From a virus (lineage: Duplodnaviria > Heunggongvirae > Uroviricota > Caudoviricetes), in the IMG/VR virus record IMGVR_UViG_2802429225_000009, positions 1 to 29,934 of that record: 29,934 nt of DNA. The stretch is one strand, 5' to 3'. Positions 5,999 to 14,055 of the stretch are shown here, piece after piece. The translations under genes were made by a program, and so were the position numbers. The stretch's first letter is position 1; the number at the start of each line of letters is the position of its first letter. The notes under the pieces were generated by a model. The model was not told the DNA's origin, did not search any database, and saw nothing but the letters and a program-made list of their open reading frames with translations.

Positions 5999-8821
5999 AT
6001 GACGACAGAGTTCATCAGGGACTGGCAACAACCGCGCCACGCAGTAGGGCGTGAAGGAACGGGGATCCCCGCACCTGAATCCGCGCTTTCCTCCTGGCTG
6101 GATGCCTACCGGGCAGAGAACGAGCGCCGCCAGGAAATGGCTGATGCGGCGTTCTCCGCCACGCCGCTGGGCAACCTGATTAATAAAAGCCTGGACGCAC
6201 AGGAAAAACAGGACAAAACCATCACACTGGCAGGAGACGCCAGAAAACAGGCACGCGGCGCGGTGGATGAAGCCATGGCCTCGCTCCGCCTGCTGCCGTC
6301 CTATCTGCGCGATCCGCTTATTCGCCACCTCTCCTTCCTGCGCAAAAAACAGGAAGCTGATCGCCGGAAAGGCAAAAAGAGCTGGCAGGCTGAACGCTAC
6401 GCGCGCGGAACCCTGCGCAAAATATTCGAACGTCTGGATCGCACCGACCACCGCTGGCTGACACCGGGTTATCGCTCCCTTGCCGGACGCGAACACCTGG
6501 ATGATTTGCTTTACCTGCCGCAGCTCAACAAACACCAGATACAGACGCTGGCCGCCATGACGGCGGCGATGTTCAGCAGCACCTTCGAAAAACTCTGCGA
6601 TGGCTTTGGCGCGACCGATGGCGAGCTGACCATGGATGTAACCCTGAAGGCGTATCAGATGCTGGCCCGCATGGCGTTACACCTGCACGCCATGCCTCCA
6701 CATTATGACGCACTGACAACAGACAAAGACCGGAGGAACGAACCGGACACGGAGCTGCTGCCGGGCGCAATCCTTCGCCTGACCTGTGCAGAATGGTGGA
6801 AACGCAAACTGTGGCTGTTACGTTGCGAGTGGCGGGAAGAACAACTCCGCGCCGCCTGTCTGGTTTCCAGAAAAACATCTCCCTATCTGAGCCAGGACGC
6901 GTTAAGCGAGTTTCGCGCACAGCGCGAGAAAACACGCGATTTCCTGAAAAGTTTCATGCTGGAAAACGAAGACGGGTTCACGATTGATCTCGAGACAGTG
7001 TATTACGCGGGAGTAAGTAACCCGGTTCACCGTAAGGCAGAAATGATGGCCACCATGAAGGGGCTGGAGCTTCTGGCCGAAGCCCGTGGCGACAAAGCGG
7101 TGTTTCTGACTGTCACCTGCCCGTCAAAATACCACGCCACAACAGAGAACGGTCATCCGAATCCCAAATGGAACGGGGCCACCATGCGCGACTCCAGCGA
7201 TTACCTGGTTAACACGTTTTTTGCGGCGGTCCGCAAGAAACTGAACCGCGACGGCCTGCGCTGGTATGGCATCCGCACGGTGGAGCCTCACCATGACGGC
7301 ACCGTGCACTGGCATATGATGGTCTTTGCTCATCCGGAAGAAATCGACACCATTGTGTCCCACACCCGCGATATTGCCATTCAGGAAGATCGTCACGAGC
7401 TGGGTGATGATATTACCCCACGCTTTAAGGCGGAGCACGTCGACGGCTCAAAAGGCACACCGACCAGCTACATCGCCACCTACATCGGGAAAAACCTGGA
7501 CAGCCGTGCCGTGGATGGCATCGACCCGAAAACGGGCAAGCCACGCGTTGACCACGAAACAGGTAAATCAATGGCCGAGAGCGTGGAGCGCGCCATCGGC
7601 TGGGCGCGCCTTCACCGGGTCCGCCAGTTCCAGTTCTTTGGCATTCCCTCCCGTCAGGTGTGGCGTGAACTCCGCCGCCTTGCCAGCCAGATGGCACGCA
7701 ACCCGGAAGGCCCGCAACGGCTGAAGGATGACGCAATGGATGCGGTTCTTGCTGCCGCTGATGCCGGGTGTTTTGCCACCTACATTGAAAAACAGGGCGG
7801 CGTACTTGTTCCACGCAAAGACTACCTGATTCGCACCGCCTACGACCTCGCCGATGAGCTGAACGATTACGGCGAACAGAGTGTACAGATTTACGGGATC
7901 TGGTCGCCACTCATCGGGGAATCCTCCCGTGTGTGCACGCATCAGGATAACTGGAAGCTGGTAAGACGCAAACCGGAAGCGAAAGACAGCGCCCGCGAAA
8001 ATGGTTTTGACCTTCAGGGCGGCCCTGCCGCCCCTTGGACTCGTGGCAATAACTGTCCCCGTGTACAGGAAACGGACAACAACGGGACAGAACAGCCGGA
8101 AGAACGGCCAGCACCGTGGCCGCAGCTTCCTGACGGCGTTGAAGTAAATGAATGGATGCGCTCACTGAAACGGCACGAACGCCGGGCGCTGATGCGTTCG
8201 CTTCGTGACAAACAGGCAAAAAACAGCAGCGATGAAATGCAGAACTGGACACAGAGCCGCAAACAGCCACAGCCTTTGCCTGATAACCACGAGTTACTCG
8301 CTAAAGAATGGCGGGAGTCTGCTGAATCTCTCGGCCTGCATATCGGTGAACAGCAGATGCAGCACCTGTTACGGGGCGGCAGCCTGTACGTTGACGGCAG
8401 CATCATTGCACCGCAGGGATTTGAAATTGTACGCAAACCGGATACCCGCCCGGACAGCCGAATCACGCAGCTCTGGCAGCGCCTGAGCCGCAATCACGGC
8501 GTAAGCAGCACGGAGATCCGTCATAACCCGGTCGCCAGCTATCTGGAACAGCTGGGGGCATCAGACCCCGAAGCCGCCGCACGCCTGGCATCCACACTTC
8601 AGCAAGACCAGAACACCATGAAAACACCCGTTACCGTGCTTTCTGACATGCTGCGCGCCATCCGTGACGCAGAGCACGCACAGAGAATCAGTGAAACCAC
8701 TGAACGCGCCCGCCGCAAAGCAAACCTGCTGCGGGGTGGCCTGACCAGTGGAAACAAAAAACAGACAAAAACGGGATTTACAAATCCCGTAAATGAGCAA
8801 AAAACGCGCCGCGATATATGA
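5999..8821 (+). CDS. A: Rolling-circle replication initiator (HUH endonuclease), P2 gpA family
   Basis: 940-aa ORF. HUH-type motif (HHDGTVHWHMMVFAHPEE) and other blocks remembered from P2/186 A proteins. Position after the early genes matches P2. The C-terminal ~180 aa is longer than I recall for P2 A and overlaps the first palindromic site, so the true stop could be earlier if there is a sequencing frameshift. Confidence 0.85.
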   Translation: MTTEFIRDWQQPRHAVGREGTGIPAPESALSSWLDAYRAENERRQEMADAAFSATPLGNLINKSLDAQEKQDKTITLAGDARKQARGAVDEAMASLRLLPSYLRDPLIRHLSFLRKKQEADRRKGKKSWQAERYARGTLRKIFERLDRTDHRWLTPGYRSLAGREHLDDLLYLPQLNKHQIQTLAAMTAAMFSSTFEKLCDGFGATDGELTMDVTLKAYQMLARMALHLHAMPPHYDALTTDKDRRNEPDTELLPGAILRLTCAEWWKRKLWLLRCEWREEQLRAACLVSRKTSPYLSQDALSEFRAQREKTRDFLKSFMLENEDGFTIDLETVYYAGVSNPVHRKAEMMATMKGLELLAEARGDKAVFLTVTCPSKYHATTENGHPNPKWNGATMRDSSDYLVNTFFAAVRKKLNRDGLRWYGIRTVEPHHDGTVHWHMMVFAHPEEIDTIVSHTRDIAIQEDRHELGDDITPRFKAEHVDGSKGTPTSYIATYIGKNLDSRAVDGIDPKTGKPRVDHETGKSMAESVERAIGWARLHRVRQFQFFGIPSRQVWRELRRLASQMARNPEGPQRLKDDAMDAVLAAADAGCFATYIEKQGGVLVPRKDYLIRTAYDLADELNDYGEQSVQIYGIWSPLIGESSRVCTHQDNWKLVRRKPEAKDSARENGFDLQGGPAAPWTRGNNCPRVQETDNNGTEQPEERPAPWPQLPDGVEVNEWMRSLKRHERRALMRSLRDKQAKNSSDEMQNWTQSRKQPQPLPDNHELLAKEWRESAESLGLHIGEQQMQHLLRGGSLYVDGSIIAPQGFEIVRKPDTRPDSRITQLWQRLSRNHGVSSTEIRHNPVASYLEQLGASDPEAAARLASTLQQDQNTMKTPVTVLSDMLRAIRDAEHAQRISETTERARRKANLLRGGLTSGNKKQTKTGFTNPVNEQKTRRDI

Positions 8822-8868
8822 AGCGCGCACAAAACAGGCGAAAGCGGGATTTCAGAATCCCGTAAACG
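8771..8868. promoter_or_regulatory. Twin palindromic sites upstream of parM (candidate parC-like centromere/operator)
   Basis: CGGGATTT-ACA-AATCCCG at 8772-8789 (perfect 8-bp arms) and GGGATTTCAGAATCCC at 8846-8861 (7-bp arms). Both are followed by GTAAA, lie about 75 bp apart, and the second is 37 bp upstream of the parM start. Candidate -10 TAATTA at 8871-8876. Confidence 0.4.
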
Positions 8869-8897
8869 GTTAATTAACCAACATAAGGAAAATCGAC

Positions 8898-9857
8898 ATG
8901 AAAATTTGTATCGACGACGGCTCCACCAACATCAAGCTGGCATGGACTGAGAACGGCGAACGCCGCAACGCCATCAGCCCGAACAGCTTCAAGTCGGAAT
9001 GGTCTGCGCCGTTCGGTGGCACGCAGCCCGCAAACTACATGCTTGATGGCGTGCGCTATGGTTTTGATCCGGTCAGCGATCGCTTTGTCCAGACGACCGA
9101 CACGCAATACCAGTACAGCGATGTGAATGTCATTGCCATTCATCACGCGCTGGTCAAATCAGGTATCACACCACAGGAAGTGGATGTGGTTGTCACCCTG
9201 CCACTGAGCGAGTATTTCGACACAAACGCCCAGCCGGATATGACCAACATCAACCGCAAAAAAGCGAACGTTATGCGCCCGGTGGAGTATCAGAACAGTG
9301 AGGCATTCACTATCCGCAACGTACGGGTTATGCCTGAATCCATTCCGGCTGGCTTTAAGGCACTGGCTGACATGAGTCAGTTTGAATCCCTGCTGATTGT
9401 GGATTTGGGCGGAACCACGCTGGATGTGGCAAAGGTTCAGGGACAACTGGCAGGTATCAGCCAGGTGTTTTGCGATCCACACGTAGGCGTTTCTCTGATG
9501 GCCGATGCCGTGCTGTCGGTGATGGCCACCAACGGTATGCGTACCAGTCACCACATCGCTAATACCATTATCGAACATCGCCACGATGAAGCCTGGCTGC
9601 GCCAGCACATCCACAATAACGCACATTACGCCAGCCTGATGGCAGTTATTCGTGAAAAGGAGGAAACACTGAAACAACGCGTGATCCGCGCGCTGGCGGG
9701 TTTTTCGGGTTACGGGCGGGTGATGGTTGTAGGTGGAGGAGCGGAGATTGTGGCACCCGCTATCCGCGAAGCCTGCGGAGTTAATGCGACTTTCATCGCG
9801 GACGGGGTGCCACAGTTTGCTCTGGTTAATGGGCTGTACGCAATGGACAAGGAGTAA
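8898..9857 (+). CDS. parM: ParM/StbA actin-like segregation ATPase
   Basis: 319 aa. N-terminus MKICIDDGSTNIKLAW...ISPNSFKSEW...QYSDVNVIAIHHALVKSGI tracks remembered R1 ParM (MLVFIDDGSTNIKLQW...ISPNSFKREW...QYSDVNVVAVHHALLTSGL). Actin-fold phosphate motifs (DDGST; DLGGTTLD). AAGGA RBS. Confidence 0.85.
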   Translation: MKICIDDGSTNIKLAWTENGERRNAISPNSFKSEWSAPFGGTQPANYMLDGVRYGFDPVSDRFVQTTDTQYQYSDVNVIAIHHALVKSGITPQEVDVVVTLPLSEYFDTNAQPDMTNINRKKANVMRPVEYQNSEAFTIRNVRVMPESIPAGFKALADMSQFESLLIVDLGGTTLDVAKVQGQLAGISQVFCDPHVGVSLMADAVLSVMATNGMRTSHHIANTIIEHRHDEAWLRQHIHNNAHYASLMAVIREKEETLKQRVIRALAGFSGYGRVMVVGGGAEIVAPAIREACGVNATFIADGVPQFALVNGLYAMDKE

Positions 9858-9860
9858 ATC

Positions 9861-10176
9861 AATGACGACACCAACCAGACGGATAAGTTTCTATCTGAAG
9901 CCCGCCGTCGTCAAGAGCGAACGGGAGGCGTGCAGTTACCTCGACAGCCTGCCAGCCTCCGAACGCAGCCGCGCACAACGCGCGGCTTTTCTGGCTGGAC
10001 TGGCTCTTATAAAACGCACCCCCGCGTTGGCGTATTCGCTGGCAGAATGGTCAGAAGACGAAATACGGATGCCACCGCTACCAGTACAGCCTGAAAAACC
10101 TGCGCAACCAGCAGCAGACAGCGCCTCCCATATGCAGCAGGTGAAAAAGAATATTCAGGCGTTTTTCCCGAAGTGA
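9861..10176 (+). CDS. parR: ParR/StbB ribbon-helix-helix centromere-binding adaptor
   Basis: Start re-set to ATG 9861 (MTTPTRRISFYLKPAVV...YLDSLPASERSRAQRAAFLAGLALI), which resembles remembered R1 ParR (…RRTIAFKLNPDV…TLDSIPQGERSRLNRAALTAGLALY). AAGGAG RBS. Directly downstream of parM. Confidence 0.8.
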
Positions 10177-10190
10177 AAACAGGAGTAACT

Positions 10191-10478
10191 ATGTCCACCA
10201 TTACCAAAGAATGGTTACAACGTAAAATCACAGAGTTTAAATCGTGGCGCGAAGACATCCCGTTCGGTCTTGATGAAGACGATCACAATATGTTAATCGC
10301 ACTGGAAATCGCACTTGCATCACTGGAAGCAGAGCCAGTGGCATGGATGCACGCAAATAATCCTATTGGAATACCGGCGATAACAAGAAGTAAAGATGTT
10401 GCAGACAGCTGGCGCTCTAAGGGATGGAATGTATTGCCTCTTTATTCACTGACCCGCTCCATCAATTTATGCCATTAA
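10191..10478 (+). CDS. Hypothetical protein, first gene of the AT-rich cassette
   Basis: Start re-set to ATG 10191 (MSTITKEWLQRKI...) with AGGAG 7 nt upstream. 95 aa. AT-richness rises sharply from about 10180. Confidence 0.45.
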   Translation: MSTITKEWLQRKITEFKSWREDIPFGLDEDDHNMLIALEIALASLEAEPVAWMHANNPIGIPAITRSKDVADSWRSKGWNVLPLYSLTRSINLCH

Positions 10479-10489
10479 TGGAAGTAATC

Positions 10490-10849
10490 ATGATGAAAGA
10501 TAATTCCGGAAGCCAGCGTGCATCAGTTGCAGTTATGGTAATGATTAAATTTGTGAAACAGTACACCGGAAAGCCAATCTCGCTCCGGCAATTAAGCAAA
10601 GAAACCGTTTCACTGTCATATCTGGAGCAAATATTCAGATATTTACGGGAAAGTAGCCTGGTAAAAGCCACACGCGGCCCGGGTGGTGGATATATCCCAA
10701 CAAAAGAAAATTACAGTGTTGGTGATATTGTCCGGGCAATGAAATGTTCCGGATTATATACACAGCACGTTATTCTGGCTGCACTGGATAATATTTCTTT
10801 AACCAGCCTGCAGGAAGACACAAATTATCAGTTGTCTGCCATTGAATAA
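10490..10849 (+). CDS. Rrf2-family (IscR/NsrR-like) winged-helix regulator, short form
   Basis: Start re-set to ATG 10490. 119 aa. The family signature SLSYLEQIFRYLRESSLVKATRGPGGGYIPTKENYSVGDIVRAM aligns with remembered IscR ([47 protein letters not shown]). The downstream segment has one Cys rather than the three-Cys cluster-ligand set. Confidence 0.7.
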   Translation: MMKDNSGSQRASVAVMVMIKFVKQYTGKPISLRQLSKETVSLSYLEQIFRYLRESSLVKATRGPGGGYIPTKENYSVGDIVRAMKCSGLYTQHVILAALDNISLTSLQEDTNYQLSAIE

Positions 10850-10853
10850 GAAA

Positions 10854-10894
10854 ACCCGGAACGGGTGCGCAAATTCTTTGTGCGCCCGTTCCGG
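10854..10894. terminator. Bidirectional hairpin terminator between the convergent Rrf2-like and ogr-like genes
   Basis: 11 perfect base pairs (CCCGGAACGGG / CCCGTTCCGGG), extendable to about 17 with wobble pairs, around a 7-nt loop (AATTCTT). A-run upstream and T-rich sequence downstream. Sits between the two stop codons. Confidence 0.6.
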
Positions 10895-10917
10895 GTTGGA
10901 CAAGCGAAGCGCGTCAG

Positions 10918-11175
10918 CTATCCGGCCTGCAACAACTCCAGCGCCATCTGTTTTTCTTCCGGGCGCATTCGTTCAATCAACAGCTTTAACACGCCATTCT
11001 CCAGCCCGCTGGGCACCAGTGTGTGCGAGTAGGTCAGGTTCATCACCCAGGTGTGCCCACACTCGAGACGGGTGCAACGGTAATAAACATCTGCAAAGCG
11101 ATCATCTTTCCAGAAGGTCTTCTCAATCACTGCGCGTTCACCACAGCAAAAACATCGCGCTTTTTGTCTGCGCAT
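10918..11175 (-). CDS. Ogr/Delta-family zinc-finger late transcription activator
   Basis: Start re-set to the ATG at 11175 (MRRQKARCFCCGERAV...YYRCTRLECGHTWVMNLTYSHTL...) with GGGAGGTGG RBS. Cys pairs CxxC...CxxxC with spacing like remembered P2 Ogr (…CPLC…QCQNVNCSATF…). 85 aa. Confidence 0.65.
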   Translation of the reverse strand: MRRQKARCFCCGERAVIEKTFWKDDRFADVYYRCTRLECGHTWVMNLTYSHTLVPSGLENGVLKLLIERMRPEEKQMALELLQAG

Positions 11176-11240
11176 TTTCCACCTCCCGGAGCAGCGTTTT
11201 CCTGCTGCTGATTTTACCTGCTCTTTTCGCATGTCGCACA

Positions 11241-12275
11241 TCACTCCGGGGGCTCATCAAATTCAAGAATAAATTTCACCTCCCCCAGTCGCCTGATATC
11301 CGGGTCACTGTTGATTCCCTCCATGATCAGGCGGCGCATCGGAATAACCTCGTCCCTGTAATATGCCTCGCGGGATTTCAGTGGGTCACCAAGCCCGGCC
11401 GTATTTGCGGGAATGATGCCGGCAAGTCCGGGTGGGAAACGGTGCGCAACGAGCTGATCCTGGGCACTGATGGTTTTTATATTCAGGAACTCATCTTTTG
11501 TACCTGAATCCCCGATAGGGATCACCTTAACGCCTTCTTTGTCTCCGCCCGGTATATTGATAAACATGGATTTAAAATTGCCCGCCCCTTTTGACGCCTC
11601 TATCTTTTTACGGAATTCCGCCTCGAGCTCGGGATCCATGTCCGGGTCAGTGGAATACAGGATATAACCAAGATGTGCGCCGTTCTTGTAATACTTGCGG
11701 CGAAAGCGGGTGGCATCCACATTCAGCATGGCGGATTCCATCCCGTGAATATAATCCGGGACACCGTAAACCTGCTGTTGTGGGTCATAAATGGCCACGA
11801 ACACCACTTCGCCTGGCTGATAAACGAGATCTTCCAGTGCTGCCTGCACAATCACCGTGCCCCCCTCGTTGTTACGCCGCAGGTACAGAGAAGGTAACGT
11901 ATGCAGGCGCACCACTCGACCGAAGCCATTGCGCACTTTAAGCAACCCCATATCCCCGAATATCAGCAGATTGGTTACTGCTGCCGCCATGGCGGCGTGT
12001 GTCATACCACCACCACCCCGAAAACCCTGCATGATCATATTGACGCGCGCACGCAATACCGCGCCGTGATACGGTGCGATATTGGACAACATGGCGAGAT
12101 CCATGCGCTCAATTGGCGGCGTGTACCAGCCGTTATAGCCATCCCAGAGCGAGCCGTAATAACAGCCCCATGCAGCGACCGGCTCCGGGTCACCAAATTC
12201 AATAAACGTCATTTTGCTGGCTGTTTTTTTTGCCACGCCATCGTGTAACACGGGGTATTTTTTCTTTTTACTCAT
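11241..12275 (-). CDS. Q: Portal protein, P2 gpQ-like
   Basis: 344 aa, the length I recall for P2 Q. Immediately downstream of, and overlapping, the large terminase gene on the same strand; divergent from the O-N-M-L operon as in P2. Confidence 0.85.
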   Translation of the reverse strand: MSKKKKYPVLHDGVAKKTASKMTFIEFGDPEPVAAWGCYYGSLWDGYNGWYTPPIERMDLAMLSNIAPYHGAVLRARVNMIMQGFRGGGGMTHAAMAAAVTNLLIFGDMGLLKVRNGFGRVVRLHTLPSLYLRRNNEGGTVIVQAALEDLVYQPGEVVFVAIYDPQQQVYGVPDYIHGMESAMLNVDATRFRRKYYKNGAHLGYILYSTDPDMDPELEAEFRKKIEASKGAGNFKSMFINIPGGDKEGVKVIPIGDSGTKDEFLNIKTISAQDQLVAHRFPPGLAGIIPANTAGLGDPLKSREAYYRDEVIPMRRLIMEGINSDPDIRRLGEVKFILEFDEPPE

Positions 12276-14055
12276 CTGACAGGATCCATGTTGATTTGCG
12301 CTTGTGCTTATAGTTCAGGGGTTCATTACTTGCGGCATGAGCTATGGCAAAGAAGATGTCAGCGTGCCCGGTTTCTTCGCTACGTTCGGCGGTAAAAGTA
12401 ACTTTATTGCCACTGTTGGTGGATTCCTGACGAATGGCCAGGAACGATGCCGGAATATCCGTAGCTTCCTCATCCCACTCAATACGGTTGGCGTAAATCA
12501 GATCCAGCATCTTCATCACCAGGCGGTTTTTGGATTCCACGCTGTAATGAATGGCCACTGTTTCACGGCGGGCAAATCCCTGAACCAGCTCAAAGACACC
12601 GTAGCCAAGACCGGTGACGTCAATGCCGATAAACGTCATGTTATAGCGTGCCTTAATGCTGCGGATACGCTCTGCCATAAACTGGAATGACATGCTGCGC
12701 CAGTGGTGTTTTTCCAGCACGCGGAATCGTTCTGCCGCAACCAGCGGCGGTGCCAGCACAACAAATGTGGCGTTATCGCCGGAGCGCGCAGGGTCAAAGC
12801 CGCCCCAAACCTCACGGTTACCAAATGGCATGGGCTCTTCCGGGTGAAAATCCTCCCACGTACTGACATCAACACCACAACGCACAAGATCATCGAATTT
12901 AAAGACGCTCTCTTTGTCATCCACAAACACACACATAAACAGCATATTGAACGCTGTTTCGTTGTATCGCTCGCGCAGTTCGTTGATGTCAGCAAGGTTA
13001 AAGCCGCCGGCAATGGCATCTTCCAGCGTAACCACATAGCGCCACTGACCATCCGGACATTCACGCCCACCATCGCGCAGCTCATCAAAGGACGGAAACT
13101 CAACCCCTTTTCGTTTCGGATCGCCTTTGCGCCATTCATCGCCAGACCAGAACGGGTAACCCTGGTGTGTTTTGGATGACGGCGTGGAGAAATAGGTAAT
13201 GCGCCAGTGTTTATGGGTGGCCATCCCTGATGCCACTTCATTGAGACGGCGAAAACCGGGGATCCACAGGTATTCATCAATATACAGGTGGCCGCTGTTT
13301 GACTGCGCTGTGTTACTGTTGGTCGCCAGAAAATACAGTTCAGCCAGATTACTTAACTTAACCGGATTGCCTTTAATGGGAATGCCAAACTCTGTTTGTG
13401 CAATTTTTACAATATAAGTACGGAACACTTCGGCCTGACGTTTTGATGCCGATAAAAATATCTGTGTGTCGCCGGTTAATACTGCATCTTCAAATGCCTC
13501 AAACGCGAAGTAATACGTCGCCCCAATCTGGCGGGATTTAAGCAGGTTGCGTACACGGCGGAATTTGTTTTCACGCAGATGCAACTGATAAGCAAACAAC
13601 TTTTTCGTAAACGGCTCAAAACTTTCAGCAGTCAGTCCGGAAACGTCATTAGTTTTGCGGGGACGCTCTTTCTTACCTGCACCTTTTTCTCCGCGTTCTT
13701 CTTTTCCATAACGGCCAGGCTGGGGGATGTCCACTCCCATTCGCGCAATCTCAGCCATTCGTTCCGTGTGCTTGTTTCTGACCGACATTAGTTTGACGTG
13801 ATGACCAATCAGGCGGTCGAGTTCATCGTGTTCTTCCGGCGTTTTATGGTCACGCTCCGCCAGTACAGCGAGACGCCGGGCGATAACATCCTCCACACCT
13901 TCCGTATTGAGCTGCGTGTACCACTCAAACTTTGTCGCCCAGTAATAAACAATTCGCGGGCTGTTCAGTCCGAGTTTCTTTTGTATTTCTTTTGGTGTGT
14001 GCCTTTTCAGATAGAGCGATTTTGCAGCAGCAATCACCTCATCAGAATACGCCAT
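12268..14055 (-). CDS. P: Terminase large (ATPase) subunit, P2 gpP-like
   Basis: 595 aa. Walker-type region near the N-terminal third (RQIGATYYFAFEA...) and nuclease-domain acidic residues. Size and position match P2 P. Confidence 0.9.
   Translation of the reverse strand: MAYSDEVIAAAKSLYLKRHTPKEIQKKLGLNSPRIVYYWATKFEWYTQLNTEGVEDVIARRLAVLAERDHKTPEEHDELDRLIGHHVKLMSVRNKHTERMAEIARMGVDIPQPGRYGKEERGEKGAGKKERPRKTNDVSGLTAESFEPFTKKLFAYQLHLRENKFRRVRNLLKSRQIGATYYFAFEAFEDAVLTGDTQIFLSASKRQAEVFRTYIVKIAQTEFGIPIKGNPVKLSNLAELYFLATNSNTAQSNSGHLYIDEYLWIPGFRRLNEVASGMATHKHWRITYFSTPSSKTHQGYPFWSGDEWRKGDPKRKGVEFPSFDELRDGGRECPDGQWRYVVTLEDAIAGGFNLADINELRERYNETAFNMLFMCVFVDDKESVFKFDDLVRCGVDVSTWEDFHPEEPMPFGNREVWGGFDPARSGDNATFVVLAPPLVAAERFRVLEKHHWRSMSFQFMAERIRSIKARYNMTFIGIDVTGLGYGVFELVQGFARRETVAIHYSVESKNRLVMKMLDLIYANRIEWDEEATDIPASFLAIRQESTNSGNKVTFTAERSEETGHADIFFAIAHAASNEPLNYKHKRKSTWILSDE

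Follow-up and report, generated by a model that had tools for sequence, protein, structure and literature searches.

The DNA analysed here, referred to as the window, is a stretch of 29,934 nucleotides from a P88-like, P2-family E. coli prophage. Between its replication endonuclease gene gpA and its portal gene gpQ, in the interval from parR to ogr, lies a cassette of two genes, the second of which encodes a shortened member of the Rrf2 family (mini-Rrf2). The features of this region are the following.

9862–10176, + strand: parR/StbB gene (Pfam Plasmid_stab_B, 85.7 bits), ending 14 nt before gene 1.
10170–10850, + strand: AT-rich, apparently promoterless cargo module, the unit that is swapped in the gpA–gpQ hotspot, with junctions defined against the relatives L138 and L012.
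10182–10186, + strand: putative AGGAG ribosome-binding site of gene 1, read from the sequence, within the common left edge (10170–10176 to 10191).
10191–10478, + strand: gene 1, a 95-residue small phage protein of Eaa type.
10490–10849, + strand: gene 2, the mini-Rrf2, a predicted sensor-less, IscR-like winged-helix protein of 119 residues (assigned by Pfam, PHROG and fold).
10610–10630, + strand: recognition helix SLSYLEQ, equivalent to IscR Ser38–Gln44, among them the base-contacting Ser40, Glu43 and Gln44.
10673–10693, + strand: β-wing RGPGGGY, equivalent to IscR Arg59–Tyr65.
10739–10768, + strand: deletion junction MKCSGLYTQH, in place of IscR residues ∼86–111 (alignments; hhalign gaps of 14 and 9 columns).
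10769–10846, + strand: retained C-terminal helices (VILAALDNISLTSLQ...), aligned by hhalign to IscR 112–138 (LSDRLTGFLNNITLGELV...) and modelled by AF2.
10853–10897, − strand: hairpin with a 21-bp stem, predicted from its free energy and U-tract to be the intrinsic terminator of the ogr/portal-side transcript.
10918–11175, − strand: ogr/Delta late-activator gene (Pfam Ogr_Delta, 43.5 bits; also a RefSeq CDS), convergent with the cassette.

The module is 681 bp long and sharp-edged, with a GC content of 0.426, where the window averages 0.524 (sd 0.041), and only 1.3% of segments of equal length have a GC content as low. Likewise, GC3 is 0.43 and 0.39 in the two cassette genes and 0.57–0.65 in gpA, parM, parR, ogr and the portal gene, so that the marked AT-richness relative to the flanks, pointed out in a preliminary description of this DNA, was borne out. 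The relative L138 matches the window at 8801–10169 and again at 10851–12600, with an unrelated cargo of 1077 nt in between, while in L012 homology begins at 10176, preceded by another allele of parR and two additional genes. Related prophages thus hold different cargo at identical junctions, which establishes both the boundaries of the module and its status as variable cargo. Complete copies of the cassette were found in approximately 36–37 of 5426 complete E. coli genomes, some part of the interval 9800–11300 being matched in 1273 genomes of the same set; megablast searches of this interval against phage and plasmid collections returned matches to the parM–parR end only. Moreover, copies of the cassette in 40 genomes are ≥99% identical, and the adjoining ogr–portal flank is ∼93% identical in most carriers. 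These comparisons support the earlier suggestion of separate acquisition; the alternative that the cassette is conserved core sequence of ordinary GC content does not fit a segment that varies among relatives and is low in GC.

The gpA–gpQ interval is described in two publications (PMC9122126, PMC13586616) as a hotspot for P2 cargo and defence systems, in agreement with the proposal that the position is typical of such cargo. The exact arrangement of the cassette appears in Table S5 of Rousset et al., where it is listed; the available part of that paper describes no test of it. The cassette does not adjoin the portal gene, as had been stated, since ogr intervenes. The hairpin that follows it is real and strong, with a calculated ΔG of −41.9 kcal/mol on the + strand (z −7.9) and −36 kcal/mol on the − strand. 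However, a U-tract, UUUUCUUAUU, follows it on the − strand only, the + strand having a strong hairpin without one, and the element is 100% identical in L138, which has no cassette. On sequence grounds the hairpin is part of the ogr-side backbone, and the description of a bidirectional terminator insulating the cassette could be kept for neither its directions nor its role. Inspected by eye, the hairpin did not fit the consensus of an IscR-like site. An Rfam scan of 9500–11500 gave nothing credible, and no match to the 19-mer of P2 cos was found.

The ribosome-binding site of gene 1 is the sole upstream sequence that moves with the module, which comes without upstream regulatory DNA, and no promoter-like site was found between parM and gene 1. 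Depending on the start of gene 2, the stop of gene 1 either overlaps it or lies 11 nt before it. An alternative start of gene 2 at 10478 would give 123 residues; the start at 10490 (119 residues) is more likely, with GGAAG 5 nt upstream and the same start called by RefSeq/PGAP, which names the product ‘RrF2 family transcriptional regulator’ (WP_000974052.1). Because of this close spacing and the lack of a promoter-like site ahead of gene 1, the two genes are likely to be co-transcribed, as previously proposed, and transcription probably enters the cassette from the gpA–parM–parR operon.

Gene 2 was assigned to the Rrf2 family by Pfam, scoring 50.8 bits against PF02082 (cut-off 30), with coverage of profile positions 2–85 of 132 only. 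The score against the full-length family model TIGR00738 (53.4) lies below its cut-off of 73.3. Among curated NCBIfam models the best match is the IscR equivalog TIGR02010, at a sub-threshold 59.2 bits (cut-off 207.55); a second IscR equivalog, PRK10857 (46.2 against 275), and the CymR equivalog NF047409 (49.1 against 195) are likewise below theirs. The match to phrog_24072 reaches 162 bits, and hhalign aligns gene 2 to an IscR alignment with a probability of 99.85%. Over 77 residues gene 2 is 40% identical to E. coli IscR, and it is no nearer to this protein than to distant IscRs; the winged-helix signature reported earlier therefore stands, but the statement that it aligns almost residue-for-residue with IscR was too strong. 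AF2 modelling of the single chain gave a compact structure (pLDDT 84.4), for which the best Foldseek match was apo-IscR (4hf0_A, TM 0.72). The top 36 PDB matches were all Rrf2 proteins (IscR, CymR, RsrR, NsrR and BC1842), with best TM values of 0.72–0.74. The earlier family assignment thus held up in profile HMM and structure-prediction searches alike, and by sequence, profile and predicted fold gene 2 is a true Rrf2 protein, closest to IscR.

The two DNA-reading motifs, SLSYLEQ and RGPGGGY, are identical in gene 2 and E. coli IscR. In IscR, Ser40, Glu43 and Gln44 are contacts in type-2 site binding (PMC5411485), and these base contacts, together with the wing Arg59, are present in gene 2 and kept across the mini family, so that gene 2 lacks none of the residues with which IscR is known to read bases. 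Within the family the S, S, Y and E of the recognition helix are invariant and the Q nearly so, and GPGGGY is invariant. SxSYLEQ and GPGGGY are also common to other Rrf2 clades, with CymR as the next-best match, and therefore do not prove IscR-site specificity. Furthermore, the N-terminal arm conserved in IscR (MRLTxKGRYA) is replaced in gene 2.

Approximately 23–30 residues are missing from gene 2 relative to IscR. The deleted segment is the one that carries Cys92, Cys98, Cys104 and His107, along with the first half of the dimerisation helix. The [2Fe-2S] ligands are therefore absent (23 deleted columns in the hhalign alignment), confirming what the preliminary description had read from the cysteines. 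Exactly one cysteine is found (codon 10745–10747), within the deletion junction, and it is not conserved, occurring in about 5 of 20 family members. In the C-terminal remnant AF2 predicts helices at residues 93–100 and 104–114. Only ∼30 residues follow the winged-helix domain, compared with ∼60 in canonical Rrf2 proteins, which makes a homodimer with half-sites spaced as in IscR uncertain. Since half of the dimerisation helix is deleted, the geometry of the dimer, and hence the operator spacing, may differ from those of IscR.

This shortened architecture is shared end to end by ∼18 diverged clusters of phage proteins (95–123 residues, <50% identity); PF02082 was matched by 18 of 18 members. 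The family corresponds to PHROG 24072, annotated as of unknown function, and cluster members are present on >1000 contigs. When the phage collection was searched with the protein, 4 weak relatives were obtained. Every copy examined from E. coli, E. albertii and viral contigs has an intact reading frame. Mini-Rrf2 genes are carried in the early operons of temperate phages of Enterobacterales whose backbones are unrelated, both P2-like and lambdoid; on lambdoid contigs the gene is placed between the immunity repressor and RecE or the integrase, as in Citrobacter phage Chris1. Such end-to-end conservation indicates functional genes rather than debris. Our search of the literature for phage-encoded Rrf2 or IscR found no study.

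E. coli IscR, the [2Fe-2S] regulator of isc and suf (PDB 4HF0, 4HF1, 4CHU), has the winged-helix fold in common with gene 2, as well as the two motifs and the helical stretch 112–138 to which the remnant aligns. It differs in length (162 residues against 119), gene 2 also lacking the C-terminal tail, and in context: gene 2 is phage cargo and is neither upstream of iscSUA nor the first gene of an iscRSUA operon. The dimerisation domain of CymR is of full length, and CymR is regulated by the binding of CysK. This characterised, cluster-less Rrf2 protein of B. subtilis and S. aureus (PDB 2Y75, 3T8R) comes second among the matches by sequence and by fold, but its solved chains run to 129–143 residues, against 119 in gene 2, and the mini-Rrf2 has the deletion of 23–30 residues. 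The Chris1 ‘iron-sulfur cluster regulator IscR’ (UOL51134.1), 47% identical to gene 2 over residues 7–84, belongs to the same phage family and shares the small size and the early-operon position. Its name is an annotation only, and in Chris1 and the IMG/VR relatives the gene resides in a lambdoid genome rather than in a P2-type hotspot. Each of the P2 genes old and tin is transcribed from a promoter of its own. The systems listed by Rousset et al. (2022), like old and tin, share with the present module the gpA–gpQ interval, variability and AT-richness; the module differs in having no recognisable defence protein and in being apparently promoterless, read from the partition/early operon.

Our preferred reading, held tentatively and at somewhat less than even confidence, is that the module is promoterless cargo encoding a signal-blind DNA-binding regulator that acts at IscR-like operators, in the host more probably than in the phage. 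Most likely the module came from a pool of accessory genes in lambdoid-phage early operons and now occupies the distal end of the gpA–parM–parR transcription unit in the gpA–gpQ hotspot. The mini-Rrf2 would then be made whenever the phage early/partition operon is transcribed. Presumably as a dimer, it would occupy IscR-like operators (type-2-like, CC...GG) irrespective of the Fe-S status of the cell, and these operators would lie on the host chromosome more probably than on the phage. The outcome would be an apo-IscR-like programme imposed on the cell, or IscR-controlled promoters blocked, during phage development. An apo-IscR-like action on host isc/suf operators, as suggested earlier, is plausible because the contact residues are conserved. 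What the unrelated carrier backbones have in common is the host, and not a phage promoter, which is a point in favour of host targets. In addition, host ISC/IscR status has been reported to affect phage fitness, and the anti-phage toxin system RnlAB has been reported to be IscR-controlled (bioRxiv 10.1101/2024.04.20.590424).

A more specific version, in which Enterobacterales temperate phages carry a sensor-deleted IscR surrogate that takes over host IscR operators in early development, seems to us possible but doubtful. If a surrogate of this kind operates, independently of Fe-S status, it could for instance keep suf-type cluster assembly switched on to serve the phage, or shut down loci under IscR control such as RnlAB; this would amount to a viral hijack, by a ‘mini’ transcription factor, of a regulator of Fe-S homeostasis.

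Alternatively, the protein could be a phage-internal regulator working at phage operators (an early/late switch, the parMR promoter or ogr), with the likeness to IscR reflecting ancestry only. Most phage-encoded HTH proteins do act on phage promoters, and the gene sits beside immunity and early control regions in the lambdoid relatives and is convergent to ogr here. The module, however, moves without flanking regulatory DNA, between P2-like and lambdoid backbones with no obvious common promoter, and close relatives of the prophage lack the cassette, which therefore does not belong to a core circuit. Scans for IscR boxes, made with loose consensus sequences (type 2 with up to 1 mismatch, type 1 with up to 3), gave 2 type-2 matches in the window, where 4.1 were expected, and 0 of type 1; in 15 non-redundant mini-Rrf2 phage loci, 14 type-2 matches were found, where 28.5 were expected. 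Neither enrichment nor an autoregulatory, phage-internal or conserved IscR-like box was thus detected in this phage DNA, a result which, the consensus being loose, is weak negative evidence. On balance we regard a purely phage-internal role as unlikely.

The two genes might instead act together in anti-phage defence or superinfection exclusion, or as toxin and antitoxin. Defence systems are abundant in the hotspot (PMC9122126, PMC13586616), and a defence or exclusion role would suit this location just as well as the regulator we prefer. Moreover, the ORFs are tightly coupled and the second is predicted to bind DNA, a layout resembling that of toxin-antitoxin modules. Against this, PADLOC models matched neither cassette protein, nor ParM/ParR, and no enzymatic or effector domain was found in either cassette protein. 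Nor was any homologue of gene 1 found beside a mini-Rrf2 gene outside the present prophage lineage: mini-Rrf2 homologues have other neighbours, the two genes are adjacent in one context only, and the partner adjacency across contexts that marks type II toxin-antitoxin systems is missing. The arrangement is listed by Rousset et al. with no test described in the part available. The two-gene system of the preliminary description was accordingly given up, gene 1 is proposed to be an unrelated Eaa-type passenger, and a defence or toxin-antitoxin pair appears quite improbable.

Nor do we think it at all probable that the mini-Rrf2 serves as a dominant-negative partner of host IscR, forming a heterodimer unable to respond normally to cluster loading. 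The remaining half of the dimerisation helix is kept, as is the helix after it (VILAALDNISLTSL, against LTGFLNNITLGEL in IscR), and the remnant aligns specifically with IscR 112–138. The cluster site of Rrf2 dimers lies at the subunit interface (PMC5411485), which counts in favour of such a partner. Identity to E. coli IscR in this C-terminal stretch is low, however, and the family keeps a surface for reading DNA that is complete and conserved, something that a subunit acting purely as a poison could do without. Finally, although the protein is shorter than every characterised Rrf2 protein and covers only Pfam positions 2–85, it is scarcely credible that a captured iscR is decaying here into a remnant with no function, given an architecture and functional motifs conserved in all those clusters, intact frames on so many contigs, a confident and compact AF2 model and no special closeness to E. 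coli IscR; the pseudogene reading was rejected in view of the family-wide conservation.

Should gene 2 bind IscR operators, it would represent a naturally occurring, minimal and permanently ‘apo’ IscR, of use in telling cluster-dependent from cluster-independent regulation, and the phage would be rewiring Fe-S homeostasis in its host, or anti-phage loci under IscR control, by means of a pared-down copy of a host regulator; if it does not, it would be one more small phage HTH regulator. For the P2 family, the cassette suggests that the gpA–gpQ hotspot takes up regulatory cargo from lambdoid early operons too, and not defence systems alone. The mini-Rrf2 proteins make up a small, unstudied phage protein family that, judged from the sequences, may control host genes without sensing Fe-S status.

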